This document shows, in pieces, positions 19,453 to 37,098 of a stretch of DNA of 64,000 bases. Position numbers and translations under genes: made by a program. This DNA comes from Bacteroidales bacterium (lineage in GTDB: Bacteria > Bacteroidota > Bacteroidia > Bacteroidales > UBA3824), in assembly GCA_017535325.1 (NCBI GenBank), contig JAFXUC010000045.1, positions 3,169 through 67,168 of the forward strand, written 5' to 3'. The number at the start of each line of letters is the position of its first letter. Within the stretch, counting starts at the first letter, position 1. The notes under the pieces are model-generated. The model had not been told where the DNA came from. It saw nothing but the letters and a program-made list of their open reading frames with translations, and made no database searches.

Positions 19453-19811
19453 AAGCATTCTATAAAATAGTAAGGTCGGTTTTGATTTCTAAGTAGTTTT
19501 TCATCTTTGTTTCATTTTAACTGAAAGCGATGCCTAATGCGATAAAAAAGATAAAAAACAATGTTGCTTGATGTCTGCTCATTTTCATTTATTTTTAATG
19601 GTTTAACAAATATTCTTTTGCTTATTACTATTACCAAAGTCGTACCAAAAAATAATTTCAAATCAAAAAAATATTAAATTTTTTTATTGGTTAGCGTATG
19701 ATGTGCGGGGTAAAAAAGAGAATAATATTTAACAGATTTTAACAGTATTTTTCTGCAATTTTACTAAAAAAGTTAATACATTTATAATTTGAAATTTAAT
19801 TAGTGATTACT

Positions 19812-22114
19812 ATGTCAGAAGAAACAAAAAATTATAAAGCAGAAAGATACAACCGGCGGACTTTGAACCGCATTTTAGCCGATGTTTTTAAGGAAAATCC
19901 TTTGAAAGAATATGGGTTTGAGGATTTGATTTCCCTTCTTAATATTGAAGACAACGCTTCAAAAGAAATGTTGCAACTCGTTTTGAATGAACTTGTTGAG
20001 GGAAATAAAATTCAGAAAAACGAGGCGGGTAATTTTCAGACGGTGATAAAGACCGGGGTTGTTATCGGTATTCTGGACCTGTCGAGAAAGGGTCAGGCTT
20101 TTGTCCGCGAGGAGCAGAGCGGCGCGGAAATTTCCGTTCCTAACGAAAACCTTCACAACGCGCTTCACGGCGACAGAGTGGAGATTGCTTTGTCTGCCTC
20201 AAAGAGCGGAAAGCAGGAAGGCGAGGTTATCAAAATCATAAAACGCGCAAGAACTTCTTTTATCGGAACGATTGAAAAGGACAAAAATTTCGCGTTTTTG
20301 GTAACAAATCACAAAACCATGCCTTACGACATTTTTATTCCGTTCGACAAGTTGATGAAAGCCAAAAACAACGACAAGGCTGTCGCTGTTATCACCGAAT
20401 GGCCTGAGGGCGCAAAAAATCCTATCGGCGAGGTTATCGAAATTCTCGGCGCAACCGGTAACAACGAAACCGAAATTCATGCTATTTTGGCAGAATATGG
20501 TCTTCCTTATCAGTTTCCTGAAAACGTTGAAAAGGCCGCCGAAGCCCTTAGCACCGAAATCACCGAAGAAGAAATCGCTTCAAGGCGCGATATGAGGGAC
20601 GTTACGACGTTTACAATCGACCCCGCAGATGCGAAAGACTTTGACGATGCCATCTCGTACAGAAAACTCAAAAACGGAAACCATGAAATCGGCGTTCATA
20701 TTGCCGACGTTTCACACTATATCGAAGAAGGCTCGGTAATCGATCAGGAGGCTTTCAACCGCGGCACAAGCGTTTATCTTGTTGACAGGGTTGTGCCGAT
20801 GCTGCCCGAAAAACTCTGCAACGAGGTCTGCTCTCTGCGTCAGGACGAGGACAAACTTACGTTTTCTGCCGTTTTTGAACTCAACGACAAAGCCGAAATC
20901 CAAAGCGAATGGTTCGGCAAAACCGTTATCCGCAGCAACCGCCGTTTCTGTTACGACGAGGCTCAGCAGATAATCGAGACCGGCGAAGGCGACCTCAAAG
21001 ACGAAATTCTCAAATGCTGGGATTTGGCAAAAATCCTGAGGGAAGAGCGTTTCAAAAACGGCTCTATCTCCTTTGAGAGAAACGAAATAAAATTCGACAT
21101 TGACGAAAACGTAAACCGCTCAGGGTTTATTTCAGGGAGTCGAAAGAGGCTAACTTTTTGGTTGAGGAGTTTATGCTGCTTGCCAACAAGAGGGTTGCCT
21201 CGTTTGTCGGCGAGAAAAAAGACAAAAAGCATCCGGCGAAGACTTTCGTCTACCGTATCCACGACGAGCCGGATTTGGAAAAACTTTACAGTTTCCAAAA
21301 ATTCATCGGCAAGTTCGGATATTCAATCAACATGAAGAGCGACGATATGATTGCCAAAACTCTCAACGAACTTCTTTTCAAACTCAAAGGTCAGAGAGAG
21401 CAGGAGGTAATCTCGACGCTTGCTGTCAGAAGTATGGCAAAGGCAATTTATTCAACCGACAACATCGGACATTACGGTTTGGGATTTCCTTTCTACACGC
21501 ATTTTACTTCGCCGATTAGACGCTATCCCGACTTGATGGTTCATAGACTGCTTTTTAGTTATCTTAACGGTGGCAAGTCGGCTTCAAAACCCTATTACGA
21601 AGACCTTTGCAAGCATTGCTCTGAAAGGGAAAATTTGGCTGTTCAAGCAGAAAGGGCTTCCGACAAATACAAGGAAGTTGAATTTATGCGCGATCATTTG
21701 GGCGAAACCTACGACGCTTTGGTTTCGGGTATAACCGAATGGGGCGTTTACTGCGAATTGGAGGAAAACGGTATCGAAGGCATGATTCCGATGAGGGATT
21801 TGGACGACGATTTTTATATGTTTGACGAGGAGAATTACTGTCTTGTCGGACATTACACCAAGAAAAAATACCAACTCGGCGACAAAATCCAAATCAAAAT
21901 CGCCCGCGCAAACATCGAGCGCAAACAGTTGGACTTTGTGCTTTCGACTTCGGAAAAACACATCGAAACCGACCCCGAAAAAGCGGACGCCTTGGACCGC
22001 AAAAAAGCCGTCCGCGCCGTAATTCCCGGTGTAAAAAGTAAAAAGCCGAAAAAGAAACAGCCGAAAGGCAAAAAGCCGGCTAAAAAGAAATCCGGACACA
22101 AACACAAAAAATAA
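19812..22114 (+). pseudogene. rnr: ribonuclease R, interrupted by a -1 frameshift near 21104-21113
   Basis: Two ORFs (19803-21335 and 21158-22114) together cover OB/cold-shock, RNB (FTIDPADAKDFDDA) and S1 domains plus a Lys-rich tail. The RNase R-like reading continues in the other frame as ...KPLRVYFRESKEANFLVEEFMLLANK after the stop at 21101-21103. Confidence 0.85.
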
Positions 22115-23319: not shown

Positions 23320-24059
23320 TGTTTAAACTTTTTTACCACACGGGAAGATATTTTCTGCTGATGCGGCGGGTGTTTTCGCGGCCTGAAAGGTGGCGTGTAT
23401 TTTTCCGCGAAACCTTGCGCGAAATAGAAACTATCGGCATAAGTTCAATAACAATCGTCCTGATAATTTCGATGTTTATGGGTGCGGTCTGCGCTATTCA
23501 GATGGCGTACAACCTTCAGAACCCGATTGTCCCGCGGTATTTAATCGGTCTCGGAACCCGTGAAACTATGCTTTTGGAATTTTCTTCAACCATTGTCGCG
23601 CTGATTCTCGCCGGAAAAGTCGGCTCAAACATAGCCTCCGAACTCGGAACAATGCGCGTTACCGAACAAATAGACGCTCTCGAAATGATGGGCGTAAATT
23701 CGGCGTGCTACCTTATTCTGCCAAAAATAGCCGCTTTTGTGTTCTTTATTCCCGTTCTGACGGTTTTCAGCATGGCGATAGGACTGCTTGGCGGTTATGT
23801 TGCCTCGTTCAGCACGGCGGGACTCACGCCGCATGATTACGTGGTGGGAATAACGTCGTTTTTCAGGCCTTTTTATGTAACCTACGCGCTGATTAAATCG
23901 CTGGTTTTCGCCTTTATAATCGCCTCTGTGTCGTCGTATCACGGCTACTACGCTTTTGGCGGTGCGCTCGAAGTCGGAAAGTCAAGTACGCACGCCGTAG
24001 TATACAGTTCGATTGTCGTCCTGATGTTCAACCTTATTTTAACTAAGTTACTGTTATGA
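23319..24059 (+). CDS. MlaE-family ABC transporter permease
   Basis: About 246 aa, multi-pass, with the typical REIETIGISS and EQIDALEMMG motifs of MlaE/Ttg2B permeases. GTG start overlaps the hflX stop. Confidence 0.8.
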   Translation: MFKLFYHTGRYFLLMRRVFSRPERWRVFFRETLREIETIGISSITIVLIISMFMGAVCAIQMAYNLQNPIVPRYLIGLGTRETMLLEFSSTIVALILAGKVGSNIASELGTMRVTEQIDALEMMGVNSACYLILPKIAAFVFFIPVLTVFSMAIGLLGGYVASFSTAGLTPHDYVVGITSFFRPFYVTYALIKSLVFAFIIASVSSYHGYYAFGGALEVGKSSTHAVVYSSIVVLMFNLILTKLLL

Positions 24060-24811
24060 TAGAAGTTAAGAACGTTTGCAAAGAGTTTTCTGATGTAAAA
24101 GTCTTGTATGACATCTGCGCTGAATTTCTGCCCGGAAAAACCAACCTTACAATCGGACAGTCGGGCAGCGGAAAAACCGTCCTTTTGAAATGTATCGCGG
24201 GTCTTCATTCCGTTACGAGTGGCGACATTCTTTATGACGGACGCTCTTTTTGCGCCATGAACGAAAAGCAGCGGAAAGAAATCCGTAAGGAAATGGGCAT
24301 GGTTTTTCAAGGCGGGGCGTTGTTTGACTCTAATACAGTAGAGGAAAACGTTATGTTTCCGCTCGAAATGTTTACCCGTATGACTTTTGAAGAGCGCAGA
24401 GAAAGGGCTAACGAGTGCTTAAAACGGGTCAACATCATAAATGCCAACAAAAAATATCCGTCAGAAATTTCAGGTGGAATGCAAAAACGAGTTGCCATAG
24501 CCCGTGCTATCGCCCTTAATCCCAAGTATTTGTATTGCGACGAGCCTAATTCAGGACTTGACCCCGTAACGAGCATCGTAATCGACAACCTCATAAAAGA
24601 CATCACCGTAGAATACAATATCACGACGATAGTTAACACTCACGATATGAACTCGGTTATGGAAATCGGCGACAAAATAATTTTTATTTACAAAGGTCGT
24701 AAAAAATGGGAAGGCACAAGTGCGGAAATTTTTTCGTCGGGAGTCAAAGAATTGGACGATTTTGTCTTCGCTTCCGAAAGAATGAAGAAAATCAGGGAAA
24801 TGAGCAAATAA
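24056..24811 (+). CDS. ABC transporter ATP-binding protein (MlaF-like)
   Basis: Walker A GQSGSGKT, signature ISGGMQKR and Walker B YLYCDEP. ATGA overlap with the permease gene. Confidence 0.85.
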   Translation: MIEVKNVCKEFSDVKVLYDICAEFLPGKTNLTIGQSGSGKTVLLKCIAGLHSVTSGDILYDGRSFCAMNEKQRKEIRKEMGMVFQGGALFDSNTVEENVMFPLEMFTRMTFEERRERANECLKRVNIINANKKYPSEISGGMQKRVAIARAIALNPKYLYCDEPNSGLDPVTSIVIDNLIKDITVEYNITTIVNTHDMNSVMEIGDKIIFIYKGRKKWEGTSAEIFSSGVKELDDFVFASERMKKIREMSK

Positions 24812-24815
24812 AAAA

Positions 24816-24873
24816 AGTTATCAACACTGTGTTGATAACTTTTGTAAAATATTGAAAATAAGTGTATTAAAAA
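24816..24873. repeat. palindrome-containing ~60-bp repeat, copy 1
   Basis: AGTTATCAACACTGTGTTGATAACT (11-bp arms, 3-nt spacer) followed by TTTGTAAAATATTGAAAATAAGT. Lies between the convergent ABC ATPase and Rpn-like genes. Confidence 0.85.
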
Positions 24874-24877
24874 TAAT

Positions 24878-25843
24878 TTAATGCGTATTAACGTATTCTT
24901 TCAGTTCTTCAATGTCAAGATTGAGAGCCTTTGCAATTTGTTCAAGTGGCATAAGTCCTGTTTTGTAAATTGTTAAAGCGGATTGAAGACTGGCTTTGTG
25001 AGCCTTGGCACGTTCTTCTGCGATGCCTTCCATGCGACCCTCTGCGATGCCTTCGTCGTGTCCTTTTTTGTATTTATAATCTAACTGACCGTGGTAACAC
25101 ATATAATTATGAAAACTCTCATCGTAAAGCCTTTGTTGCTTTTTGTCAAGAGCCGAATATTCTGCCATTTTTTCCAACCGGGCAAATAGCGGTATTTCTT
25201 GCGTAAATGCTAATTGTGTTTCCATACTCTCCATGTTTGATAAATTAAATATCCATTTGTCTATATCCGTTTTGCAATCCGACTCTTCCATTTCTCTGTA
25301 AAACGGCATTTGTATTTTCCAATATTGGATCACGTCAGAATCTATTTCGTGGTCTTCCGTGTCTGAAAGAGTGCAGTGAGAAAACGCTTTCGGACGTTTC
25401 TCATCCTTGAAGTTCATAAAGAAAACGCCGTAGATGTTGGCTAAATGATAGTCCCACGGTTTTCTGTCTTCTTCGCCTTTCGCGTTGATGAAGTTTATAT
25501 AACCCTTTTTTTGCTGACGGGATACCGCCCGCGACAAATACATAACTATTCTGTCTGAAAAATATTCCTGCTGGTCGTTCTGCATTTCAATGACGAACTC
25601 TTCTCCCGAATCCGTTTCGCAGTATACGTCGTAAACCACGCGGCGTGTTTCTTTGTTTGTGTCGTCGGCTTCTCCGTCAACAATCTTTACCTTGGCGATA
25701 TTTGTTTCCGGATTTTGTTTTTGCAACAAGGCGTTAAGAAAGCCCCTTGTTATTTCTTCGTCTTTGAAGATGAATTTAAAACCGAAATCCGTCGCCGGGT
25801 TAATGTATTTCGGATGCCGATATTGTGTTTTAACGTATTCCAT
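24878..25843 (-). CDS. Rpn-family recombination-promoting nuclease / PD-(D/E)XK putative transposase
   Basis: N-terminus YINPATDFGFKFIF..., VVYDVYCETDSGEEFVIEMQ core and about 320 aa. Typical of the TIGR01784-type proteins abundant in Bacteroidales. Confidence 0.7.
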   Translation of the reverse strand: MEYVKTQYRHPKYINPATDFGFKFIFKDEEITRGFLNALLQKQNPETNIAKVKIVDGEADDTNKETRRVVYDVYCETDSGEEFVIEMQNDQQEYFSDRIVMYLSRAVSRQQKKGYINFINAKGEEDRKPWDYHLANIYGVFFMNFKDEKRPKAFSHCTLSDTEDHEIDSDVIQYWKIQMPFYREMEESDCKTDIDKWIFNLSNMESMETQLAFTQEIPLFARLEKMAEYSALDKKQQRLYDESFHNYMCYHGQLDYKYKKGHDEGIAEGRMEGIAEERAKAHKASLQSALTIYKTGLMPLEQIAKALNLDIEELKEYVNTH

Positions 25844-25931
25844 TTTGCCGGATTTTATTTTGCGCTAAAATAAAGATTATTCCTGGAAATGCAAAGGAAT
25901 AACTGAAAATTATTTTAATCTTACGAAAAAA

Positions 25932-25990
25932 AGTTATCAACACTGTGTTGATAACTTTTGTAATGTTTTGAAAATAAATTTATTAGATAA
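25932..25990. repeat. palindrome-containing repeat, copy 2
   Basis: The same 25-bp palindrome followed by TTTGTAATGTTTTGAAAATAAAT. Confidence 0.85.
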
Positions 25991-26114
25991 ACGGTGTAAG
26001 CAAGGCGGTTTTTCCGTTTTTTGTCTTTTTCTAGTCCGACATGACAGCGTATAATTTGCGTTTGAAAATCATAATGCTTAACTGTTTGATTTATTGCGCA
26101 AAAATAGCGTTTAT

Positions 26115-26168
26115 GTCGAAAATCCACAAATGTTTTTGCCCGTTTTTGTCGAAAATCCACAAATGTTT
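26115..26168. repeat. 21-bp direct repeat x2 (GTCGAAAATCCACAAATGTTT); the 26128-26152 part recurs at 30100-30124
   Basis: Read directly. AAATGTTTTTGCCCGTTTTTGTCGA is identical at both loci. Confidence 0.8.
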
Positions 26169-26180
26169 GCTTGTTGTCAT

Positions 26181-26232
26181 TTGGATTGCAGGCGGCTCGC
26201 CTGCTCTTTTCTTTATTGGTTTTGAGCCGCAA
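26181..26232. repeat. hairpin repeat (TTGGATTGCAGGCGGCTCGCCTGCTCTTT...), copy A
   Basis: Contains the 7-bp stem GCAGGCG/CGCCTGC. A near-identical 52-bp copy lies at 31191-31242. Confidence 0.85.
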
Positions 26233-26233
26233 A

Positions 26234-26295
26234 AGTTATCAACACTGTGTTGATAACTTTTGTAAAATTTTGAAAATAAGTATATTAAAAAATAT
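26234..26295. repeat. palindrome-containing repeat, copy 3
   Basis: The same palindrome followed by TTTGTAAAATTTTGAAAATAAGT. Confidence 0.85.
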
Positions 26296-26481
26296 ATCCG
26301 AGATTTACGGAGATGCAATGATTAGGCGCGTCTGTCATTATGAAAGTTGTTTCCAACTCGTATGAGGCCCCTAAATAATAATGTTCGTAATTTACGCCCA
26401 ATCCGGCATTTCCGCCTAAGTCAAAACGCTTGAAAACACCATTCCAAGCAAAATTGCAAATAAAAATGTAAATTTTTTCAT
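26285..26481 (-). pseudogene. decayed outer-membrane beta-barrel gene (signal peptide plus C-terminal strands only)
   Basis: MKKFTFLFAILLGMVFSSVLT then a stop. In another frame the sequence continues ...GLGVNYEHYYLGASYELETTF...SVNLGYIF*, resembling the C-terminus of the 203-aa barrel protein (..SLNFGYKF). Confidence 0.55.
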
Positions 26482-26534
26482 TTCTGTTATATGTTTAATT
26501 TTTCAAGTCGCAAATTACAAAATTAAAAAAACAA

Positions 26535-27170
26535 CTAAAAACTTGTAGTCAGAGTTAAAACGAATCCTTGCATATTTTTATTTGACAGTGTTTTTTCATT
26601 AGCATAAAAATTTGCTTTTTTGGAATATTCCAGTGTTGAAAACACATAACCCCCACTTATACTACATTTGTCCTGAAATTTGAAATTCACTCCAAATGTA
26701 AAATAATATGAAAGGACTCCGCTTGTAAACGTAAAATCCTGACTTTCTGTGAAATCATTGTTATATTCCGTTATTGTTCTTGAAAATTTGCGGTTAATCA
26801 TAACGCCGTTTTCTGTTGAAAAATTCACTTTCAACTTTTCTGTCTTTATGATATTCGGTGAACATATTTTTGCTGACGGCATTACAAACAGTCTGAAAAG
26901 TCCGTCATCATCTTCGCTGAAAGACGAAAAAATGCCGTTTTCAGGTATTTCCTTCCAAAAGCCAACACTTCCGCCACAACCTAAATAATCACAAAACATA
27001 TAATGATAGCCGCAATGCAGCATAAAAACATCGTCAGAAAAAAAACTCCAACTACAACTTACGTTATGGCTTTGCGGTAAAAAATCGTCTGTGTCCGTAT
27101 CTGTTTGAGCATTTACAGAAAAAAACACCATTCCAAGCAAAATTACAAATAAAAATGTAAATTTTTTCAT
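26535..27170 (-). CDS. hypothetical secreted / outer-membrane protein
   Basis: Signal peptide MKKFTFLFVILLGMVFFSVNAQ, beta-rich with alternating hydrophobic residues, C-terminal ...LTLTTSF. Confidence 0.55.
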   Translation of the reverse strand: MKKFTFLFVILLGMVFFSVNAQTDTDTDDFLPQSHNVSCSWSFFSDDVFMLHCGYHYMFCDYLGCGGSVGFWKEIPENGIFSSFSEDDDGLFRLFVMPSAKICSPNIIKTEKLKVNFSTENGVMINRKFSRTITEYNNDFTESQDFTFTSGVLSYYFTFGVNFKFQDKCSISGGYVFSTLEYSKKANFYANEKTLSNKNMQGFVLTLTTSF

Positions 27171-27304
27171 TTTGTTATGTGTTTAATTATTTTCAGGCTG
27201 CAAAATTACAAAACCTTTTTCGAGAAAAATTCCGAAAAGGTGTTGTTTTTAATTAAAAATTGTGTCCATGATTTACAGAAAACTAATTTTATGAAAGAAT
27301 TAAT

Positions 27305-28000
27305 TTAGTTAAAATCAAATTTCACAACAATCGGTTCTAAATCAACAGTTTCACCTGTTATGGGGTCGGCACCGAATTTCATAGAAATAGTTAAATTATA
27401 TGTTCCGTAAATGTCAGGTAATTTTTTGAAATGAAGCCTGAACCATTCGTTCAACATATAGAGAGGCTCTTCTTCTGATATTGAATCCAAACTGCGTTGA
27501 AGTTCAATATAGTACTTTCCCTCTTTTGGTAAATTATTCTTCTTTACATAAATTTCTGTTTTCAAATCTCTAAATTCATATAAATACACCAAATCGTTAA
27601 TCGAACTATTTGCTGGATGTTTTTCATCAAACTGCTTGTCGGTTTTCACATTAATTGATATTAACGGCATTACCGATGCATAGTTTAATGCGCTAATCGT
27701 ATGAATATTAGAGAATATTGTATCTCCATAGAAACTTGCATATTGTTTAAAAGCAGGGAGATTTACTTCTGGATCAAACTTAAACGGTTTTTCATCAGGC
27801 ATACAATCCAATACGATATAATTTCCTATATCCGAATCGGAATCAACACCACAACTTTTGACATTTATTCCATTTGGAATGTAATAAACATCAACCAATG
27901 ACGGAAAACCGTATTCGATTAGGTCTTCGCATTCTTTTTCTTGATTACAACTCACCAAGGTAGCCGCAATCATTGCAAATAAAAATGTAAATTTTTTCAT
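27305..28000 (-). CDS. hypothetical lipoprotein
   Basis: Lipobox MKKFTFLFAMIAATLVSC. No family recognised. Confidence 0.55.
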   Translation of the reverse strand: MKKFTFLFAMIAATLVSCNQEKECEDLIEYGFPSLVDVYYIPNGINVKSCGVDSDSDIGNYIVLDCMPDEKPFKFDPEVNLPAFKQYASFYGDTIFSNIHTISALNYASVMPLISINVKTDKQFDEKHPANSSINDLVYLYEFRDLKTEIYVKKNNLPKEGKYYIELQRSLDSISEEEPLYMLNEWFRLHFKKLPDIYGTYNLTISMKFGADPITGETVDLEPIVVKFDFN

Positions 28001-28053
28001 TTTGTTATCTGTTTAGTTATTTAATTAATATGTTTTAAAAATTTAACTTTCAA

Positions 28054-28434
28054 TTATTTGCTTATAACAACATTTTTTGTGTACACCACAGTTTTTTTGT
28101 CGCTGACTATAATATTATAGTTTCCTAAACCATAATCTTGTAGCGTACAACTAAACATTGTGCCGCCGCCGGTGGTTATACCTGCCACTTTTGAACCGTC
28201 GCAGAAAACTTCTACCGTACCGCCTTCCGTATTAAACGGAAAATCAACCGTTAACAACGTTGACGAATCCTCGTATGAAACGTTTACAAGCATTTGCCTT
28301 CTGTGAGAAGTATGCTGATTTTTATCTCCACCATCTTCCTGCCCTTTAAAATTTTTACTTATTTGTGCCGATGTTTTCGTCATCGCACCTGAGGCTGCAA
28401 TTACAGCAGCAAGTAATAATATAACTTTTTTCAT
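28054..28434 (-). CDS. small secreted Ig-like protein (tentatively DUF3244-like), paralog 1
   Basis: Signal peptide MKKVILLLAAVIAASGA. Conserved core VSYEDSSTLLTVDF..GTVEVFCDGSKVAGI..TMFSCTLQDYGLGNYNIIVS shared with the genes at 31994 and 62846. An alternative upstream ATG lies at 28455. Confidence 0.65.
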   Translation of the reverse strand: MKKVILLLAAVIAASGAMTKTSAQISKNFKGQEDGGDKNQHTSHRRQMLVNVSYEDSSTLLTVDFPFNTEGGTVEVFCDGSKVAGITTGGGTMFSCTLQDYGLGNYNIIVSDKKTVVYTKNVVISK

Positions 28435-28619
28435 CTCCGCTGTTTTTTTTATCACACAGCAAAATTACAACATCAAAAACGTTTTGTCAAGGTGATGTTC
28501 CCTTTACAACTGATATAATCAACTGATTTTCAAACTTGTTCCTAAATGGGAACAACTTTTTACCCCCGAAAAAGGAACAAAAAAATATAGAGAAATACTA
28601 CATAAATCACATTTTTTTG

Positions 28620-28627
28620 TATTTTTG
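28620..28627 (+). promoter_or_regulatory. -7 box TATTTTTG upstream of TPR-TM-HTH regulator 1
   Basis: Exact TAnnTTTG match 25 nt before the ATG at 28652. Confidence 0.5.
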
Positions 28628-28651
28628 CACAACAATAAACTTTAAAACAAA

Positions 28652-30097
28652 ATGAAAAAAATAAGCATAATTCTATTAATTATTCTTTTTATTCTCGGAT
28701 GCAGAGAAACAAGCGAAGTCCGCCAAGAACTCGTAAAAGCAGATTCTTTGCTCTACAAAAATCTTGTTGATTCAGCAAACAATGTTTTAAAGGAAATCGA
28801 ACCAAAAACGCAAGGGGATTCAGCATATTTTTTTGTTTTAAAAGCGGAAACTGCTTACAGAGAAGGTGAAAAACCTAATTTTAACGAAATAAATTTCAGC
28901 ATAAAATATTATGAAAAACATTCTAATGACAGAAACTTGGCAAACGCTTATTATTATAAAGTATGCGCCTTTATTATTAGAGATACTATGCCGCAAGAAA
29001 TTTTTACGTTACTGAAAAAAGCCGAACAAGCAGCGGAAAATACTTCTGACAATAGTTTGAAAGGCAAGATTTGTTCAGCATTGTCGTATACTAATGCCAT
29101 TTCCGGCGAACTTGAAACTGCATTATGTTACGCAAAAAAAGAATATCTCAATGCAAAAAAATTAAATTGCCGCCGTGATATTGCATACGCATTAACAAGG
29201 CTGTCGTCTATTTACAATGAATTAGGTCATAAAGATAGTTCAGAATATTATATTTTGCAGTGCAAGACACTTATAAACGAAGTTGATAACAAAGATAAAG
29301 CCTTTATTTATAATCTTTTAGGAGAGTGTTTTGTTTACGAAAATACAGAGGCTGCCAAAAATTATTTTATAACAGCATTAGAATACGCCAAAATTCCAAT
29401 GGCTTATCGAAATCTCTCCAAAATATACTATGCAAACAACGATATTCAAAACTGGAAAGTCTATTGCGATTCTGCCTTGATAAATACAGGATACAAAGAC
29501 AAAATTTATATTCTTTCCGACATTGCACAAACATATTATGCCGATGAAAATTTGATTGCCTATAAACAAACAAATGACGAGATTTTAAAAACTATGCAAG
29601 ATTTGTATAACAGTGAAAAAGAAAACTATTCGCTTGAAATACAACGTAAATTTGATTATGAAAGGCAGAAATCCAAATATGAAAAAAAGATATTGTTATT
29701 AATCATCATATTAATACTTTTATCGTTTGGAATTGTCAGCGCAATCTACGTATACAAACGCACCAAACGCAAAAATCTTGACAAAATGGCGGAATTAAGC
29801 AATATAAAATTAGATTTTTTGGAAAGGGGGCGTGATGTTTACGAAAAAATCAAGAAAAGTCAGTCAATATCAGATAATAAACGGGATTGGATTAATTGTC
29901 TGTATTACTTTTCTGTAAAAAATGCAGGGAAAGATAAAATATTTAATCAATACAATGACCTTAATATTTCTGACCAACTTTTTATAATTGCAGATGATTT
30001 TTTTCAAAAAACGGACGATGAAATAGCAAATGTTTTTGATATTGAACCTGTTACCGTCCGCACACGCCGTTCAAAACTGAAAAAGAAACTGAAATAA
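28652..30097 (+). CDS. membrane-spanning one-component regulator: lipoprotein signal, TPR region, TM helix, C-terminal LuxR/sigma-r4-like HTH (paralog 1)
   Basis: Lipobox LFILGC; TPR-like repeats (NLANAYYYK, ALCYAKKEY, AYALTRLSSIYNELG); TM helix ILLLIIILILLSFGIVSAIYVY followed by KRTKRK; C-terminus DDEIANVFDIEPVTVRTRRSKLKKKL. Confidence 0.65.
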   Translation: MKKISIILLIILFILGCRETSEVRQELVKADSLLYKNLVDSANNVLKEIEPKTQGDSAYFFVLKAETAYREGEKPNFNEINFSIKYYEKHSNDRNLANAYYYKVCAFIIRDTMPQEIFTLLKKAEQAAENTSDNSLKGKICSALSYTNAISGELETALCYAKKEYLNAKKLNCRRDIAYALTRLSSIYNELGHKDSSEYYILQCKTLINEVDNKDKAFIYNLLGECFVYENTEAAKNYFITALEYAKIPMAYRNLSKIYYANNDIQNWKVYCDSALINTGYKDKIYILSDIAQTYYADENLIAYKQTNDEILKTMQDLYNSEKENYSLEIQRKFDYERQKSKYEKKILLLIIILILLSFGIVSAIYVYKRTKRKNLDKMAELSNIKLDFLERGRDVYEKIKKSQSISDNKRDWINCLYYFSVKNAGKDKIFNQYNDLNISDQLFIIADDFFQKTDDEIANVFDIEPVTVRTRRSKLKKKLK

Positions 30098-30099
30098 AG

Positions 30100-30124
30100 A
30101 AATGTTTTTGCCCGTTTTTGTCGA
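30100..30124. repeat. copy of AAATGTTTTTGCCCGTTTTTGTCGA (also at 26128-26152)
   Basis: Identical 25-mer read directly. Confidence 0.8.
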
Positions 30125-30162
30125 TTTAAGGATGAATTATTTGCAATTTGACTAAATGTTTG

Positions 30163-30170
30163 TATTTTTG
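30163..30170 (+). promoter_or_regulatory. -7 box TATTTTTG upstream of the Panacea-like gene
   Basis: Exact TAnnTTTG match 16 nt before the ATG at 30186. Confidence 0.45.
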
Positions 30171-30185
30171 CGGCAACGAAACTAA

Positions 30186-30776
30186 ATGAATCAGATTATG
30201 GGCATCGGCATTAAGGCAAATAGAAAGAAAATCGGCGCATTGTTGGCGTACCTGAGTTTCAGGATGCCAAATGTTGAACTGCGCAAACTTCTTAAAATCA
30301 CATATTTGATAGATGAAAAGGCAGTAATGGAACGTGCGTTTCCTATTACTTGGCTTGATTATTATGCGTGGGCGAAAGGCCCCGTTGCCCCCGATGTTTA
30401 CGACATCAAAAATGGTTCGCTGAACGATTTTGTAAGTTGCAAAAAAAATGCGGCCGACAAATGGACTGTATCGCCTGTAAAAAATGCCGAGTTCCCAATT
30501 CTTCAAGGCATGAAGGCGTTCAGTAATTATGAAAAATCAATAATCGACAGTGTAATTTCGCAATACGGCGACAAATCCTCCGACGAACTCACCGACGTTA
30601 CACACGAATGTAATTCGTTGTGGTTCAAAGTTGTGGAAGAAAACAAAATTGATTTTAGCAAACAGCCAAAAACAGTTTTTCCGATAGACCTCAACCGTCT
30701 CAACGACGACAGCAAAAAAGAAATTTACGAAGAAGCGTTTGATTCCGTCCAAATTCAGGCGGCAATAAATTCATAA
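30186..30776 (+). CDS. Panacea (DUF4065 / SocA-like) domain protein, putative antitoxin
   Basis: Pattern KLRKLLKITYLIDEKAVMERAFPITWLDYYAWAKGPVAPDVY resembles the DUF4065/SocA antitoxin N-domain (K..KLLY..D...G.P......A...GPV....Y). Confidence 0.6.
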   Translation: MNQIMGIGIKANRKKIGALLAYLSFRMPNVELRKLLKITYLIDEKAVMERAFPITWLDYYAWAKGPVAPDVYDIKNGSLNDFVSCKKNAADKWTVSPVKNAEFPILQGMKAFSNYEKSIIDSVISQYGDKSSDELTDVTHECNSLWFKVVEENKIDFSKQPKTVFPIDLNRLNDDSKKEIYEEAFDSVQIQAAINS

Positions 30777-30779
30777 AAA

Positions 30780-31187
30780 ATGTTTGCACCCGGAGACATA
30801 ATATATGGTTTTGCCAAAGGTCTATATCGCCCGAAATTCAAATATGTAGTTTCAATTTTCAAAGATGCCGACCTCAACATTCTTGCTCAGTTTACTACAA
30901 GTCAAGACAGGCGCGGCTATGTTATTGAAGCCGGCAAAGAATTGGGCTTGCATCCTCAGACGGGTGTCGCGTTCAGTTTTCCCAAACGTACAGTGATGGC
31001 ATACGATTACGGTTTCTTGTATGGTACAGAAAACCAATTAATTTCGCAATTTGACAACCCCGAAGTAGTATGCCGTATGTACGACGATGTATATATCAAT
31101 TTGGTCTATGCATTATACAAAAGCGATTTCTCCCCTGCGGAATACAAACCGATTTTAGAGAAGATTTTGACGGAATTTTACAAATAA
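30780..31187 (+). CDS. hypothetical protein, candidate toxin partner of the Panacea-like gene
   Basis: 135-aa ORF 3 nt downstream of the Panacea-like gene. PGDIIYGF...YRPKFKYVVSIF is only weakly reminiscent of MazF/PemK-fold N-termini. Confidence 0.4.
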   Translation: MFAPGDIIYGFAKGLYRPKFKYVVSIFKDADLNILAQFTTSQDRRGYVIEAGKELGLHPQTGVAFSFPKRTVMAYDYGFLYGTENQLISQFDNPEVVCRMYDDVYINLVYALYKSDFSPAEYKPILEKILTEFYK

Positions 31188-31190
31188 ATG

Positions 31191-31242
31191 TTGGATTGCA
31201 GGCGGCTCGCCTGCTCTTTCCTTTATTGGTTTTGAACCGCAA
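31191..31242. repeat. hairpin repeat, copy B
   Basis: TTGGATTGCAGGCGGCTCGCCTGCTCTTTCCTTTATTGGTTTTGAACCGCAA, near-identical to 26181-26232. Confidence 0.85.
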
Positions 31243-31272
31243 GCATTGCGGCTCTACATACTTACAAAAAAA

Positions 31273-31325
31273 AGTTATCAACATTGTGTTGATAACTTTT
31301 GTAAAATTTTGAAAATAAATTAATT
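31273..31325. repeat. palindrome-containing repeat, copy 4
   Basis: AGTTATCAACATTGTGTTGATAACT (one substitution in the spacer) followed by TTTGTAAAATTTTGAAAATAAAT. Confidence 0.85.
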
Positions 31326-31935
31326 AAAATTTATATCCGAAATTCAAAGACAAATTATGCGTAAAACTTTTGTCGTATGAAACCTTTGAAAGATTTCTTA
31401 TTCCGTTTTCGTAACTCAAACCGATATAGTATTTTTCTGAAAGGTGATAGCCGAAACCGCCTTTGAAACCCACATCAAATCTATCGCTACCGTATTCCGC
31501 TGAAATTTTCTTTCCAGCCAAAGAAAATCTTGATGCAAATTCATAAGAAACGTAAGGTCCAATTTCTAAATCAAATTTTCCTATTTTCCATGCTGCCATA
31601 AAAGGAATTTCCAAAAAGTGAAAGCAGTTGCGAATACGACTGTTTTTCTGAACGTTGATCTCAGGGTATAGGGTCTCCCATAAAAAATAATTCTCACCGA
31701 GTTTTTCCGTACGCCATTGAAAATAATATGACAATCCCGGACGGAAAGAAAATTTTTCTGAAATTTTAAAATCTTTGCTCAGTCCGATTTCAAATCCGTG
31801 TACATTTGGATAATTCGATTTTCCAAAAGTCTCTGTCGGGATTTTATAACCAAAACGAAGATTCAAATTTTGCTGTGCAACGCTTGAAAATGAAACTCCA
31901 AGCAAAATTGCAAATAAAAATGTAATTTTTTTCAT
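31324..31935 (-). CDS. outer-membrane beta-barrel protein (porin/PorT-like small barrel)
   Basis: Signal peptide MKKITFLFAILLGVSFSSVAQ, alternating beta-strand pattern, C-terminal ...LSLNFGYKF beta-signal. Confidence 0.7.
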   Translation of the reverse strand: MKKITFLFAILLGVSFSSVAQQNLNLRFGYKIPTETFGKSNYPNVHGFEIGLSKDFKISEKFSFRPGLSYYFQWRTEKLGENYFLWETLYPEINVQKNSRIRNCFHFLEIPFMAAWKIGKFDLEIGPYVSYEFASRFSLAGKKISAEYGSDRFDVGFKGGFGYHLSEKYYIGLSYENGIRNLSKVSYDKSFTHNLSLNFGYKF

Positions 31936-31993
31936 TTCTTTTATGTGTTTAATTATTTAATTAATATGTTTTAAAATTCTAACTTTAAATTAT

Positions 31994-32404
31994 TTATCTA
32001 ATACTAACATTTCTTGAATACACTACTGTATTACCACTGCTCACGATTATATCATAATCGCCTTCGCCGTAATCTTTAAGTATACAACTAAATGTTGTAC
32101 CACCACCAGCAGTAATGCCGGTTACTTTTGCACCATTACAAAACACTTCTACTGTACTGTCCTCAGAGTATTGAGAAAAATACACTGTCAAAATAGTTGA
32201 CGATTCATCGTAGGACACGTGTACTGTCTCTTGGTGTTTATATTTACGACAACCATGCGGACGTCCTATTCTCCAATGACCACCATCTTGTGAGTTCGAT
32301 CCTGCTGTATTACAACAAACATTGCGTTGTCCATAACTTTCTGTTGATAAAACTGAGATTGCCGTAATAACCATCGGCAAAACATAATACTTTTTTATAT
32401 TCAT
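31994..32404 (-). CDS. small secreted Ig-like protein (DUF3244-like), paralog 2
   Basis: Signal peptide, then VSYDESSTILTVYF..STVEVFCNGAKVTGI..TTFSCILKDYGEGDYDIIVS. Confidence 0.65.
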   Translation of the reverse strand: MNIKKYYVLPMVITAISVLSTESYGQRNVCCNTAGSNSQDGGHWRIGRPHGCRKYKHQETVHVSYDESSTILTVYFSQYSEDSTVEVFCNGAKVTGITAGGGTTFSCILKDYGEGDYDIIVSSGNTVVYSRNVSIR

Positions 32405-32606
32405 TTTATTATATTTTTTTGTTTTTCACGCTGCAAAATTATAAACACAAACACCTACAAACCAAATTTTCCCCGTGTTAACTTCCCTTTACTGATATAA
32501 TTAAAATCTTGATAATTAATATTTTCCGCTCAGCGGAAGGTATATCTTCCGTGTAAAAAGGAAGATTTTTGTATTTTTTTATTTGCATTTCTTCATAGAT
32601 TTTTTT

Positions 32607-32614
32607 TATATTTG
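32607..32614 (+). promoter_or_regulatory. -7 box TATATTTG upstream of TPR-TM-HTH regulator 2
   Basis: Exact TAnnTTTG match 26 nt before the ATG at 32640. It lies inside the tracked TTG-extended ORF, which argues for the 32640 start. Confidence 0.5.
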
Positions 32615-32639
32615 CATAAACTTTTACATTGAAATAAAT

Positions 32640-34208
32640 ATGAAAATAATCCAACTTTTTATAATAATTGTAATCGTTTTTTTATCCGTTTCATGCAACC
32701 GACAAAGTGAAGTTTACACAAAACTTGTTCATATTGATAGTTTGCTGTCAAAAAATGACAATGATTCTGCAAGAAATATTTTAGAACAAATCAATGAAAA
32801 AAATATAACGGATAAAGAAAAAGCATACTTTTACATTTTGAAATATGCAATTTATTACCGTCTTGAAAAAGATATTTATACAGATGAAGATATAAATTAC
32901 AGCATTGAATATTACACACAAACAAATGACGCACAAAAACTTTCCAACGCTTATTTATATAAAGCGTTGACACATTTTTATTCTGTACAAAAACGTGAGG
33001 AAGTTTTATTAAATCTAAAAAAAGCAGAAAGTTTCGCAAAAAAAACAAAGGATTATGAGTTAGCAAACAAAATATATTCAGCCTTATCTATTTATAATTT
33101 AAATGAAGGCTTGTACAATGAAGCCTTGAAATTCGCTAAAAAAGAATATTACTGTGCCAAGCGGATTAACAATCAAAGATATGAAGTTTATGCTTTGTTG
33201 GATCTTTGTGTCGCATATCGTGAACTTGGAATGTCCGACAGCGCAAATGTTTTTATAATACAATGCATAAACAGAACAAAATCAATAAATTATAAGGATA
33301 ATTCGTTTATTTACAATGCGATTGGAGAATATTATTTGAGTGAGGACAATGAAATTGCTGAAAAATATTTTTTAAAGGCTCTTAGTTATTGTGATATACC
33401 AATATCGTATTATAATCTTGCTAATATATATTACAAAATTAAAAATTATAACAAGGCGACAGATTATTGTGATTCTGCGCTTAGTCATGATTTAGGTAAA
33501 TTTGAAATAGAAGTTTTGGACTTGAAATCAAAAATTAAATATGATATGGGAAATATCGCGGAATATACGGTGTATCACAACAGAATAAACTTTTTGAAAG
33601 ATTCAATTCTCAATGCTTATAAGAATAATAAGTCGCTTGAAATTCAAAAAAAATATGACACTTCGGAACATGAGGGCAAATATAAAAAGACTTTGTTGTT
33701 GTTATGTTCTATATTAATTGTATGTTTGATATTGTTTTTAGTGTTTATGAGACGGGGGAAAAAACTGCGAAAAGAAAACTCGACGTTAAAAAAGGAAAGT
33801 TCGATAATGGAAAAGCAAACTTTGAAACTTTTGAAAGTAAAAACGGCATCCGATGAACAAATTAAAGAACTCCAAGATTCTGTCGAAGAGCAACAAAAGA
33901 GCGAAAGTAAAAACAAAGATATTTTGTCGCACGGGGAGTCTGTTCTCAGCAGTATTCAAAATAACGAAAAAAAAGCATGGCTGCCGTATGATTTTGAATG
34001 TTGTATTTCATATTTTGAGTTTATTCATCCGAATTTCGCCCAAAAATTCAAAAGCGGGTACAAAGAAAAACTCACGATAACAGACAAAATTTTCATAATA
34101 TTAGAAAAATTTTTGAGCAAAAGCGATGAAGAAATATGCAATATTTTGTCTGTATCAATAAATACAGTTTATTCCCGCCGCTCAAAAATCAAAAAAAAGC
34201 AGATTTAA
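32640..34208 (+). CDS. membrane-spanning TPR / TM / C-terminal HTH regulator (paralog 2)
   Basis: Lipobox FLSVSC; TPR-like repeats; TM helix TLLLLCSILIVCLILFLVFM followed by RRGKK; coiled segment; C-terminus SDEEICNILSVSINTVYSRRSKIKKK. Confidence 0.65.
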   Translation: MKIIQLFIIIVIVFLSVSCNRQSEVYTKLVHIDSLLSKNDNDSARNILEQINEKNITDKEKAYFYILKYAIYYRLEKDIYTDEDINYSIEYYTQTNDAQKLSNAYLYKALTHFYSVQKREEVLLNLKKAESFAKKTKDYELANKIYSALSIYNLNEGLYNEALKFAKKEYYCAKRINNQRYEVYALLDLCVAYRELGMSDSANVFIIQCINRTKSINYKDNSFIYNAIGEYYLSEDNEIAEKYFLKALSYCDIPISYYNLANIYYKIKNYNKATDYCDSALSHDLGKFEIEVLDLKSKIKYDMGNIAEYTVYHNRINFLKDSILNAYKNNKSLEIQKKYDTSEHEGKYKKTLLLLCSILIVCLILFLVFMRRGKKLRKENSTLKKESSIMEKQTLKLLKVKTASDEQIKELQDSVEEQQKSESKNKDILSHGESVLSSIQNNEKKAWLPYDFECCISYFEFIHPNFAQKFKSGYKEKLTITDKIFIILEKFLSKSDEEICNILSVSINTVYSRRSKIKKKQI

Positions 34209-34326
34209 AATAATTCTCCAAAAAACAATTAAGGGAATCTAACCCCGGCTTGTAAAAAAAATCCGATGTTAAACTCCCTTTTCGATATAGTTTGTTACAA
34301 AATTTCACTGCCAATAACGTGCCAAA

Positions 34327-37098
34327 TTAGTGCGCCTCTGCCCAATTTTTACCAAAATTGCCTTCAACTTTTAATTTTACCTTCAAATCCGCCGCGTTTT
34401 CCATCTCAGTTTCAACCAATTGCCTCAACTCTTCTTTTTCGTCGGGAAAGACTTCAAACACTAATTCGTCGTGAACCTGAATGAGCATTTTGGACTTGAA
34501 ATTCTTCTCTTTGAGTCTCTTGAAAATCCTGATCATCGCTATTTTGATAATTTCTGCCGCCGTGCCTTGAATCGGTGTGTTGACGGCGTTTCGCTCCGCT
34601 GCCGCTGCAACGTTGCTGTTTCTTGAATTAATGTCGGGAAGATAGCGTTTGTGTCCGTACATCGTGGTAACAAAGCCGTTTTGTTTGCAGTCGGCAACGG
34701 TCTTTTCAATGTATTTTTTTACGCCCGGAAATTTTACAAAATAGTAGTCAATCAACTGTTTAGCCTCCGAGCGTGAAAGACCGGTATTTTGAGCAAGACC
34801 GTACGACGAAATTCCGTAGATGATTCCAAAATTTGCCGATTTTGCGATTGAACGCTGCTCTTTTGTAACCTCGTCGGGGTTTTTGCCGTAAATCAGAGCC
34901 GCCGTGCTGCGGTGAATGTCCTCGTCGTGCTTAAAGGCGTTCAGCATGTTTTCGTCGTCGGAAAAATGTGCCATCACACGGAGTTCTACCTGCGAATAGT
35001 CAGCCGAATAGATAAAATTATCCGGCGAAGACGGTACAAACGCACTGCGGATTTTTCGACCTTCCTCCGTTCTGTTTGGAATGTTTTGAAGATTGGGATT
35101 ATTGGAACTCAAACGCCCTGTTACCGTAACGGCTTGGTTGAATTTAGCATGAATCCTGCCAGTCTTCGGGTTGATAAGCAGCGGCAAAGCCTCAGTATAC
35201 GTTGAAACGAGTTTTTTCAGACCTCTGTAATCCAAAATTGCAGATATAATTGGGTGCTTGTCTGCAATTTTCTGCAATTCTTCTTCACCCGTTGCATATT
35301 GTCCCGTTTTGGTGGTTCTGGGTTTTTCGTCAACTTTCATCTCGTTGAAAAGTACTTCTCCGAGTTGTTTCGACGACGAAATGTTGAACTCTTTGCCTGC
35401 AAAAGCGTAAATTTCTTTTTCCTTCTTTTGAATCTTTTCGTTAAGTTCTTTCGTGTAATCCTTTAACAATGAGGTGTCTATACAAACGCCGTTAAATTCC
35501 ATGTCTGCCAAAACGTAAACAAGCGGCATTTCTATTTCTTTTGCCGTTTTTAAGAGATTGTTTTGTTCGAGTTCTCCGTAGAGTTTTTCTTTTAATTGAT
35601 AAGTAACATCGGCATCTTCCGCAGCATATTCTTTAACGGATTGTATGTCAACCATATCCATACTTATTTGTGCGGATTTTTTCTCGCCGATTAACTCCTC
35701 GATATGCACAGGAGTATAGTTTAAAAGGATTTGCGACAGATAGTCCATATTGTGTTTTCTGTCGGGATATAGCATATAATCGGCTATCATCGTGTCAAAA
35801 ATCTCGCCTTTGACTTCGATGTCATAATTGCGCAAAACGAGTATGTCAAACTTTATGTTCTGACCGATTTTTATAATGCTTTCAGCCATAAACGCCGGAC
35901 GGAAAAATTCAAGTCTGCGTTTTGTGTCTTCTTCGTCTTCTGTGTTGAAAGGTATGTAAAAAGCCTCGTGAGCCTTCATGCAAAACGACATGCCGACTAT
36001 TTTAAGGTTTCTTGTCTCTAAGCCCGTGGTTTCGGTGTCAAAACAAAACTCTTTGACTTCTAAGAGTCTGTGCCGCAAGTCAACGAGGTCTTCATCGGTT
36101 TCTACGAGTTTGTAATTATGTTGAACGGTTTTTATAGTTTCGTAGTTTTGAACGGGTTTTTCTTCCGCCTTTTTTTCGGGCTCTGACGACGGAGTAAAAA
36201 ACAGCGAACCGGGTTCGGCTTCAAGAGTTTTTTTCTTGCCTAAGACTCTGTCTGCCATGGTTTTCATTTCCAATTCGGCGAAAATTTTTCTAAGACTATC
36301 TTCATTGGTTTCTTTTACCAAAAAGTCGTTTTCTGAAAAATCCGTTGGCGCGTCGGTTACGATTGTAACGAGTTTTTTAGCAAGCAGAAAATCTTCTTTG
36401 TGTGTTGAAAAGTTCTCTTTCTGCTTGCCTTTCAATAAGTTAAGTTGTTGATAAATATTTTCTGCGCTTTTGAATTGCGAAATAAGTTTGTAAGCGGTTT
36501 TTTCGCCGATTCCGGGAATGCCTTTTACGTTGTCGGCGGCATCGCCCCAAAGAGCCAAGATGTCAATAAACTGCAACGGGTCTTCCAAACCTGTTGCCTC
36601 GCAAAAACTCTCTTTTGTAACGATTTCAGCGTCAGAGCCTTTCTTGGGTTTGTAAATTGTGATTCCGTCTTCAAGCAACTGATTATAATCTTTGTCGGGG
36701 GTTACCATAACGACTTCAAAACCCTCTTTTCGTGCTTTTTTTGCTAATGTTCCGATAATATCGTCGGCCTCGTATTCCGGGACTTCAACACGTTTTATGC
36801 CCATTGCGTCAAGAATTTCTTTTATGCGTGGCACGCCTGTTTTGATACCTTCGGGTGTAAGCGGACGCTGAGCCTTGTATTCAGGATAAATTTTGTTTCT
36901 GAAAGTAGGGTAGGGCGGGTCGAAAACTACTGCGATATGAGTGAAATTTTCTTTTTTCTTTAAGTCAAGAAGAAAATTCATAAAGCCGTATACAGCGGAG
37001 GTACTTTCGCCTTTGCTGTTGACCATCGGAGAGTTCAAAAGCGAATAAAACGCCCTGTAAATCATAGCGTAAGCGTCTATCAAAAAGAGTTTTTTCAT
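34327..37098 (-). CDS. polA: DNA polymerase I
   Basis: 5'-3' exonuclease N-terminus (LIDAYAMIYRAFY), 3'-5' exonuclease domain (FCFDTETTGL) and polymerase motifs (SADYSQVELRV, QVHDELVFE). Confidence 0.95.
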   Translation of the reverse strand: MKKLFLIDAYAMIYRAFYSLLNSPMVNSKGESTSAVYGFMNFLLDLKKKENFTHIAVVFDPPYPTFRNKIYPEYKAQRPLTPEGIKTGVPRIKEILDAMGIKRVEVPEYEADDIIGTLAKKARKEGFEVVMVTPDKDYNQLLEDGITIYKPKKGSDAEIVTKESFCEATGLEDPLQFIDILALWGDAADNVKGIPGIGEKTAYKLISQFKSAENIYQQLNLLKGKQKENFSTHKEDFLLAKKLVTIVTDAPTDFSENDFLVKETNEDSLRKIFAELEMKTMADRVLGKKKTLEAEPGSLFFTPSSEPEKKAEEKPVQNYETIKTVQHNYKLVETDEDLVDLRHRLLEVKEFCFDTETTGLETRNLKIVGMSFCMKAHEAFYIPFNTEDEEDTKRRLEFFRPAFMAESIIKIGQNIKFDILVLRNYDIEVKGEIFDTMIADYMLYPDRKHNMDYLSQILLNYTPVHIEELIGEKKSAQISMDMVDIQSVKEYAAEDADVTYQLKEKLYGELEQNNLLKTAKEIEMPLVYVLADMEFNGVCIDTSLLKDYTKELNEKIQKKEKEIYAFAGKEFNISSSKQLGEVLFNEMKVDEKPRTTKTGQYATGEEELQKIADKHPIISAILDYRGLKKLVSTYTEALPLLINPKTGRIHAKFNQAVTVTGRLSSNNPNLQNIPNRTEEGRKIRSAFVPSSPDNFIYSADYSQVELRVMAHFSDDENMLNAFKHDEDIHRSTAALIYGKNPDEVTKEQRSIAKSANFGIIYGISSYGLAQNTGLSRSEAKQLIDYYFVKFPGVKKYIEKTVADCKQNGFVTTMYGHKRYLPDINSRNSNVAAAAERNAVNTPIQGTAAEIIKIAMIRIFKRLKEKNFKSKMLIQVHDELVFEVFPDEKEELRQLVETEMENAADLKVKLKVEGNFGKNWAEAH

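Follow-up and report, generated by a model that had tools for sequence, protein, structure and literature searches.

A PanA-PanT toxin-antitoxin cassette that probably replaced a short stretch between two repeats in a Bacteroidales genome

The gene pair at the locus

We analyzed a window of 64,000 nt (the whole stretch of DNA to which all positions refer unless another contig or locus is named) from a gut Bacteroidales bacterium, which corresponds to positions 3,169-67,168 of contig JAFXUC010000045.1 in assembly GCA_017535325.1. The host genome, G000, is a 3.72-Mb draft assembly of 140 contigs, and the contig of the window is designated C91. At one site of the window, two repeated sequences enclose 1066 bp that contain two open reading frames (ORFs) on the same strand together with a Bacteroidetes-type promoter (Table 1). 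This gene pair belongs to an already known kind of toxin-antitoxin (TA) system, the PanA-PanT type II operon, and we refer to the block that carries it as the PanAT cassette.

The product of the first gene, PanA, matches the Panacea/SocA family (DUF4065; PF13274) with an E-value of 9e-22 and 78.6 bits against a cut-off of 25.7; thus, the Panacea-like module proposed in the first-pass annotation of this DNA is borne out. The NCBIfam model SocA_antitoxin also matches PanA (E-value, 8.7e-8), at a score below the cut-off of the model. The Bacteroidetes promoter consensus consists of TTTG and a TAnnTTTG-type box. The box is kept as TATATTTG in a copy of the module in G024, another species of the same genus, and a TAnnTTTG-type box precedes the start codon in most of 11 other loci, as judged by eye and uncounted.

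The product of the second gene, PanT, has no family match in Pfam, NCBIfam or PADLOC, and no defence-system model of PADLOC matches PanA or PanT. The PanT family is small: a word-indexed search gave 13 clusters, and 85 representatives were found at E ≤ 0.001 among 1.84 billion proteins. All nine titled loci in the genome_contigs collection are from Bacteroidales. In 12 of the 12 loci with a toxin homolog (toxin identity, 33-96%), a PanA homolog is located directly upstream on the same strand. These 12 loci represent 11 distinct ones, since L006 and L039 do not differ in their figures and probably stand for a single record; in L044, the match covers only toxin residues 1-50.

Predicted fold of PanT and its pairing with PanA

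The AlphaFold2 model of PanT, built with 13 sequences, has a predicted local distance difference test score (pLDDT) of 88.5. In a VIA structure search with this model, ranks 1 to 10 were MazF/Kid or MazF-type Mycobacterium toxins and endoribonucleases (Z-scores from 9.1 to 6.9), with 87-102 residues aligned to MazF/Kid-type chains; CcdB (6.7) and CptN (6.4) followed at lower scores, and unrelated chains appeared from 5.2 down. All of the rows listed by Foldseek for the same model were MazF-type toxin chains, with a best E-value of 7e-3. In a language-model search for look-alikes, the second rank went to a 'PemK/MazF family toxin' cluster; we use this only as a lead. The model thus predicts that PanT has the SH3-like barrel of MazF, Kid and CcdB, extended by two additional C-terminal helices (residues 102-134).

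The predicted complex of PanA and PanT scored 0.84, and the best of three controls scored 0.00; of 157 solved complexes, 116 reach the score mark used here, as do 2 of 215 mismatched pairs. Between runs, at least 84% of the contacts agreed, and the pLDDT of the partner was at least 88. These predictions support the binding of PanA to PanT. Residues K21, T40 and S41 are near-invariant in the PanT family and R44 is invariant in A1, and all of them are located in the predicted interface with PanA. A catalytic Arg/Thr pair is typical of MazF ribonucleases. On the basis of the models, PanT may be an endoribonuclease, and its toxin activity would be neutralised by the binding of PanA.

Several results speak against such an assignment of PanT. 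Foldseek gave no match in the PDB at an E-value of 0.001 or better, no MazF was found among the 12 PDB hits of the PanT family profile at E-values up to 10, and none of 36 family members matched PemK_toxin (PF02452) at E-values up to 1. PanT has no sequence-level link to MazF.

The flanking repeats

The first-pass annotation claimed that a 25-mer and a 52-mer hairpin repeat flanking the module occur a second time in the window at a much shorter distance, and the coordinates confirm this. The 25-mer (AAATGTTTTTGCCCGTTTTTGTCGA) has exactly two copies in the window, at 26128-26152 and 30100-30124, and the 52-mer also has two, at 26181-26232 (with two mismatches) and 31191-31242. The distance between the repeats is 28 bp (26153-26180) at the first site, hereafter the empty site, and 1066 bp (30125-31190) at the filled site. 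No further exact copy of the 25-mer was found in the host genome; a single 24/25 match on contig C44 falls inside a 639-aa SpoIIE-like ORF and was dropped as irrelevant.

The same annotation named low-complexity similarity as one of the results that would overturn its reading. The sequence is indeed AT-rich and the contig comes from a draft assembly, but the probability that the flanking similarity is due to chance or to an assembly artefact is negligible. Neither repeat had a single match in 100 shuffles, both junctions of the filled site are bridged by contigs of other studies (in X9 by one contig of 3276 bp, and also in X14), and the empty arrangement is seen again in three other assemblies. 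This explanation is already refuted.

At the filled site, 2 nt lie between the end of a regulator gene (28652-30097), with its stop codon, and the 25-mer. The 25-mer is a piece of a 33-bp tandem unit. At the empty site, the first 18 bp of the spacer continue this unit in register, and the other 10 bp are specific to the host genome. The orthologous site of G019, another species of the genus, has an array of 2.6 copies. The supposed 21-bp duplication in the spacer does exist, but it is actually a 28-nt direct repeat at a spacing of 33 bp. Tandem Repeats Finder gave no row at a score of 30 for the empty site and reported nothing in the window. An ORF (26041-26253, plus strand) runs through the 33-bp repeats, with 11 codons per unit and a peptide repeat SKIHKCF..., and also through the hairpin and the following palindrome. 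It is open in both species (70 aa in the window and 98 aa in the G019-type sequence, L011 5433-5729), but is probably no gene.

The 52-mer is composite; it consists of a terminator-like hairpin and the first bases of one arm of a palindromic repeat of about 80 bp. The hairpin has a 7-bp stem with six G-C pairs and a T-rich tail at both sites, and at the filled site its predicted folding energy is -15.5 kcal/mol (z-score, -2.7). By its sequence, it qualifies as an intrinsic (Rho-independent) terminator at the 3' end of the operon. The 80-bp repeat belongs to an intergenic family with two inverted arms of about 25 bp, each a small hairpin, and a center of about 25 bp; at least eight copies are present in the genome. 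Another palindromic repeat with a 14-bp stem, designated pal, is found 3' of both sites and has six copies in the genome, every one on the contig of the window. The copy after the filled site folds with -15.4 kcal/mol (z-score, -4.2). Thus, a row of three stem-loops (hairpin, arm and pal) is located to the right of the cassette between convergent genes. A palindrome of about 60 bp had been described as following the hairpin repeat in both places. This is correct for both sites, but pal follows directly only at the empty site and lies about 25 bp further on at the filled site, because 26 bp of the arm, present in the G019-type empty site, have been deleted from the empty site of the window. An Rfam scan of 24000-34500 at E ≤ 1 gave merely two sub-threshold rows at chance level.

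Table 1. Features of the PanAT locus and of the empty site, and metagenome contigs that cover the filled site
Feature	Position	Strand	Remarks
Rpn-family PD-(D/E)XK nuclease region	24810-25985	-	gene 24878-25843 between two pal copies
Empty site	26108-26180	+	about 1.8 copies of the 33-bp unit, including 25-mer 26128-26152 and 28-bp spacer 26153-26180
Empty-site hairpin and truncated arm	26181-26232	+	26-bp deletion in the arm compared with the G019 type
pal after the empty site	26231-26291	+	followed by OMP pseudogene
25-mer	30100-30124	+	isolated fragment of the 33-bp tandem unit; exact copy of 26128-26152
Left filler	30125-30133	+	9 bp, TTTAAGGAT; common to neither the empty site nor the G024 copy
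Promoter and leader	30134-30185	+	TTTG 30140-30143; TATTTTTG 30163-30170
PanA antitoxin	30186-30776	+	196 aa; Panacea/SocA domain, residues 35-146
PanT toxin	30780-31187	+	135 aa; predicted MazF/Kid/CcdB-type fold
Right junction	31188-31190	+	ATG (3 bp) linking the stop codon to the 52-mer
Intrinsic-terminator-like hairpin	31191-31227	+	stem 31198-31214, then T-run
Arm of the 80-bp (approximate) palindromic repeat	31228-31260	+	GGTTTTGAACCGCAAGCATTGCGGCTCTACA; copies on C88 (two), C72, C69, C80, C101, C104 and C91
pal after the filled site	31262-31325	+	14-bp stem; bidirectional terminator-like, between the cassette and the convergent OMP gene
Convergent outer-membrane protein (OMP) gene	31324-31935	-	3' of the cassette
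X1 contigs	28687-31290		covered; 0 differences
X9 contig	28600-31256		one contig of 3276 bp; 41 differences
X14 contigs	29675-30289 and 30675-31260		6 and 5 differences, respectively

Edges of the cassette

For a comparison within the genus, 24 other species, including G019 and G024, were searched with BLAST. In G024, the module is present at 92% identity over window positions 30134-31185 only, and its flanks are unrelated on both sides. The edges defined by G024 are 9 bp and 3-5 bp inside those given by the comparison of the filled and empty sites (30125 and 31190). In the alignment of the loci, only long blocks were used; cheap gap extension scattered tiny chance blocks through the cassette. 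The agreement between the comparison within the genome and that with the G024 copy in unrelated flanks indicates that the PanAT pair is a discrete cargo, as the first-pass annotation had put it. The module is single-copy in the host genome. Among the 11 other loci and the window, the flanks are unrelated except for the pair L040 and L041. In L022, upstream of position 1419, a distant PanAT copy is located directly after an apparent 3' end of a tRNA gene, recognized by eye from the motif GGTTCGAATCC.

The terminator was not carried along in G024, and the G024 copy has neither pal nor the hairpin. The terminator hairpin thus belongs to the scaffold of the host and not to the cassette.

The left join has 9 bp of filler and the right join has 3-5 bp. 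Positions 31186-31190 read AAATG and may be what is left of the last partial 33-bp unit. The longest direct word common to the two ends of the module is 8 bp and the longest inverted one is 9 bp, both in AT-rich sequence. No target duplication, terminal inverted repeats or recombinase was found at the ends of the module or inside it. The insert contains just the two TA genes, as was claimed when it was said to lack an integrase and a transposase. Furthermore, no such gene was found among 36 ORFs scanned in the rest of the window, and the Rpn gene is the sole nuclease- or transposase-like gene nearby. A clean insertion, however, is not supported by the junctions, which fit a replacement without target duplication.

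Two kinds of mobile element were considered and rejected. An insertion sequence or transposon is at odds with the lack of a transposase inside, of terminal inverted repeats and of a target-site duplication. An integron gene cassette is at odds with the lack of an integrase among the scanned ORFs and of pal and hairpin in G024 (the attC consensus was compared by eye). The GC content of the cassette (39.8%) is not diagnostic of its origin; the value for the genome is 41.4%, and those for the neighbouring regulator and OMP genes are 31-33.5%.

The scaffold and the Rpn segment

A segment with the order pal, Rpn gene, pal, 33-bp repeats, hairpin, arm and pal ends on the right with the empty site. 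The Rpn gene (24878-25843) matches PF12784 (E-value, 1.8e-33) and TIGR01784 (E-value, 3.2e-19). Between 24819 and about 26018, the host genome and G019 share 98-100% identity in this segment, whereas the neighbouring core genes are only 70-95% identical; therefore, the segment itself was recently exchanged between species.

The filled and empty sites had been called paralogous. This holds on the right side, where the hairpin, the arm, the palindrome and the 3' end of the OMP gene correspond, and where the filled-site flank agrees with the G019-type empty site at 23 of 23, 41 of 42 and 51 of 52 positions. On the left side, the two differ: the empty site is in the Rpn segment, and the filled site abuts the stop codon of the regulator gene. 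Neither the 25-mer nor the hairpin occurs downstream of a regulator paralog on contig C132 (77% identity over 2119 bp). The 'repeated scaffold' of the first-pass annotation is thus not a recurrent platform but two copies of the end of the Rpn segment, the second truncated and behind the regulator gene. Such an architecture is not common to Rpn genes, since the closest paralogs, on C69 and C124, have neither pal nor the 33-bp repeats (2 of 16 further tblastn hits were inspected).

Other features of the host locus were observed. An OMP pseudogene at about 26290-26483 on the minus strand is paralogous to the OMP gene at 31324-31935; as judged by eye, it retains the signal peptide and the C-terminal strands but lacks the middle and has an early stop. 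The interval between an mlaF-like ABC gene and polA (24814-34267) varies between species: it spans 9.4 kb in the host genome and 6.6 kb in another species, G012 (L032), which has a different set and orientation of regulator, small-protein and OMP genes there. An RNase R-like gene (19803-22114, plus strand) is split into overlapping ORFs (19803-21335 and 21158-22114), each with a part of the RNB domain, by a frameshift or an assembly error.

Polymorphism of the two sites

The junctions of the filled site were checked in metagenome contig runs X1, X9, X12 and X14. Contigs from three studies bridge the junctions and none skips 30125-31190 (Table 1); X12 has no contig across either junction. Such contigs are suited to common arrangements only, so that rare variants escape. 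The Rpn-side site is empty in four of four sequences, namely the host genome, G019 (contig C327, the same record as metagenome locus L033), L034 and L035, and three of these hold the longer array of 2.6 copies. An exact scan of the metagenome_contigs collection for the 25-mer, allowing one N, gave three contigs, all with the empty Rpn-side site and one of them the same record as G019:C327; among the 24 other species, BLAST found the 25-mer in G019 only.

These results bear on two points of the first-pass annotation. It had named a lack of polymorphism as a result that would refute its reading, and as far as the data go there is none: the Rpn-side sites are all empty and the filled site is bridged intact. 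Other cargos between the same repeats, for which it proposed a search in strains or metagenomes, were not seen in the three contigs found.

Direction and route of the event

We consider that the PanAT block was gained, not lost, in a one-off replacement by illegitimate or homology-facilitated recombination, with a probability of about 0.6. One discrete block, from about 30125/30134 to 31185/31190, would have arrived at the filled site and replaced 8-28 bp between the last 33-bp unit and the terminator hairpin. The target would have been the right-hand end of the Rpn-nuclease segment of about 1.4 kb, of which a truncated second copy lies behind the regulator gene. The operon, a PanA-PanT type II TA system with its own promoter, would then end at the terminator of the host site, and the cassette would now be fixed, with no active cycle of insertion and excision.

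The event is read as a gain because the spacer continues the tandem unit in register, all four Rpn-side sites are empty, and the cassette occurs elsewhere without the scaffold. The 25-mer of the filled site, an isolated fragment cut on both sides, also counts for a gain. In the opposite case, the ancestral site would have held the cassette between the 33-bp repeat and the terminator, and the Rpn-side empty site would be a deletion scar. Short AT-rich words at the junctions and inside the module (AAATGTT and AAATGTTTG) could mediate slippage for such a deletion. However, the spacer continues the tandem unit in register, which a deletion would not restore, three of the four empty sites hold the longer array, and copies of the cassette are found where there is no scaffold at all. 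We thus regard a loss as improbable.

The points that weigh against a gain by replacement are as follows. The empty locus of the window is prone to deletion, as seen in the 26-bp deletion of the arm and in the adjoining, internally deleted OMP pseudogene. The edges of the cassette rest on only two copies with at least 90% identity. The 7-mer AAATGTT is found both at 30100-30106 and at 31186; this might be taken for a short duplication, although the word belongs to the repeat unit. Furthermore, no ortholog of the filled locus lacking the cassette was found, and the interval from the regulator to the OMP gene is present in none of the 24 other species. Because no cassette-free ortholog was found, the state of the filled site before the insertion is only inferred.

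As for the route, the filler bases and the lack of target duplication, terminal inverted repeats and recombinase argue for illegitimate or homology-facilitated recombination. A single illegitimate event may have been sufficient, or a homology-facilitated one may have been anchored in the 117-bp stretch of hairpin, arm and pal. In homology-facilitated illegitimate recombination, as described in the literature on natural transformation, one end is joined by homology and the other without it. The PanAT cassette is similar in that one end is in 117 bp of about 98% identity, and the other end has no homology but has filler. No donor with the cassette beside the hairpin is known, and we infer the route from the joins.

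A second slot and the possibility of a platform

Outside the window, a second slot was found at G000:C91:68685-69350 (window-equivalent 65517-66182; compare L012 3513-4107), between an 80-bp (approximate) arm palindrome with a promoter region and another copy of pal. In the host genome, it contains a DUF3791 gene (E-value, 1.1e-19) and a gene for 73 aa; in G019, it contains a gene for 83 aa and a ParE toxin gene (E-value, 1.3e-7). Between the two species, the flanks of the slot have identities of 99% (196 bp) and 97.7% (171 bp). The second slot thus shows an allelic swap of two-gene modules between species.

In addition, the DNA that adjoins the pal copy of the empty site varies among the sequences compared. 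In G019:C327, L034 and L035, this pal is followed by the reverse complement of window positions 65455 to 63510 (97-100% identity) and not by the OMP pseudogene. In the host genome, this sequence is 39 kb away, beside an inverted copy of pal (window-equivalent 65455-65507), and the join of pal to the OMP pseudogene is supported by short contigs in X1 and X9. The difference is a rearrangement at inverted copies of pal, possibly an inversion of about 39 kb. The second slot and the joins of pal suggest that the stem-loop repeats act as hot spots of recombination; ordinary homologous recombination and a dedicated system account for them equally well.

Another possible explanation of the locus is an active platform without an integrase, in which slots bounded by stem-loops exchange two-gene modules, driven in trans by a nuclease or recombinase such as the adjacent Rpn protein. 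The interval from mlaF to polA, together with a spot about 35 kb away, would be such a platform: terminator stem-loops would mark the slots, and the Rpn nuclease would make the breaks. The swapped content of the second slot between near-identical flanks, the alternative joins of pal in G019, L034 and L035, and the high identity of the Rpn segment between species with more divergent neighbour genes are consistent with this explanation, as are three contigs of X9 that carry other sequence in front of 31191. However, the filled site is without polymorphism in the contigs checked, the joins differ in kind (the promoter is inside the cargo in one slot and outside in the other), and pal is restricted to one contig. 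The Rpn paralogs inspected, moreover, lack pal and the 33-bp repeats, and homologous recombination in the conserved flanks would suffice for substitution with no dedicated enzyme. We therefore consider an active platform unlikely, and likewise doubt the breaks by the Rpn nuclease and the notion that the PanAT pair, the ParE pair, the DUF3791 pair and the Rpn gene itself are modules that were gained, swapped and reshuffled in it.

Relation to known systems

Kurata et al. (2022, PNAS; PMC8832971), in the parts available to us, report that the partners of PanA include PemK toxins as well as MazF-like ones whose match to EndoA, PemK and MazF is visible only by HHpred. The PanA tree departs from taxonomy, which is interpreted there as high mobility. 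The pair in the window is similar to these PanAT systems in that the Panacea/DUF4065 antitoxin gene is first and the toxin gene follows immediately. The passages on these systems do not give edges of an insertion, whereas the locus in the window has clear ones. PanT resembles MazF, Kid and PemK toxins in its predicted fold; it differs from them in lacking a sequence match and in having the two additional C-terminal helices. Its partner is PanA, whereas that of MazF is MazE.

According to the parts of Furuta, Abe and Kobayashi (2010, NAR; PMC2853133) available to us, restriction-modification units are mobile, and many of them have long target duplications or inverted repeats. As far as those parts go, the PanAT cassette and these units are both addiction-type, without a recombinase of their own, flanked by repeats, and found by comparison of filled and empty sites; allelic substitution between the same flanks is also included among the units. 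The PanAT cassette differs from what is described there in that it has no duplication, its two flanking repeats are different from each other, and the two sites compared are in one genome.

Conclusions

The movement of TA pairs without mobility genes is still poorly explained. At the locus analyzed here, both edges of such a pair are placed within about 10 bp. They rest on two independent comparisons, and the host site is a row of terminator-like stem-loops beside an Rpn gene. If the platform explanation, which we consider unlikely, were true, it would provide a concrete mechanism for the movement of TA pairs without mobility genes. As it stands, the locus adds a tidy example of the edges of a TA cassette, not a mechanism, and it offers a testable system.

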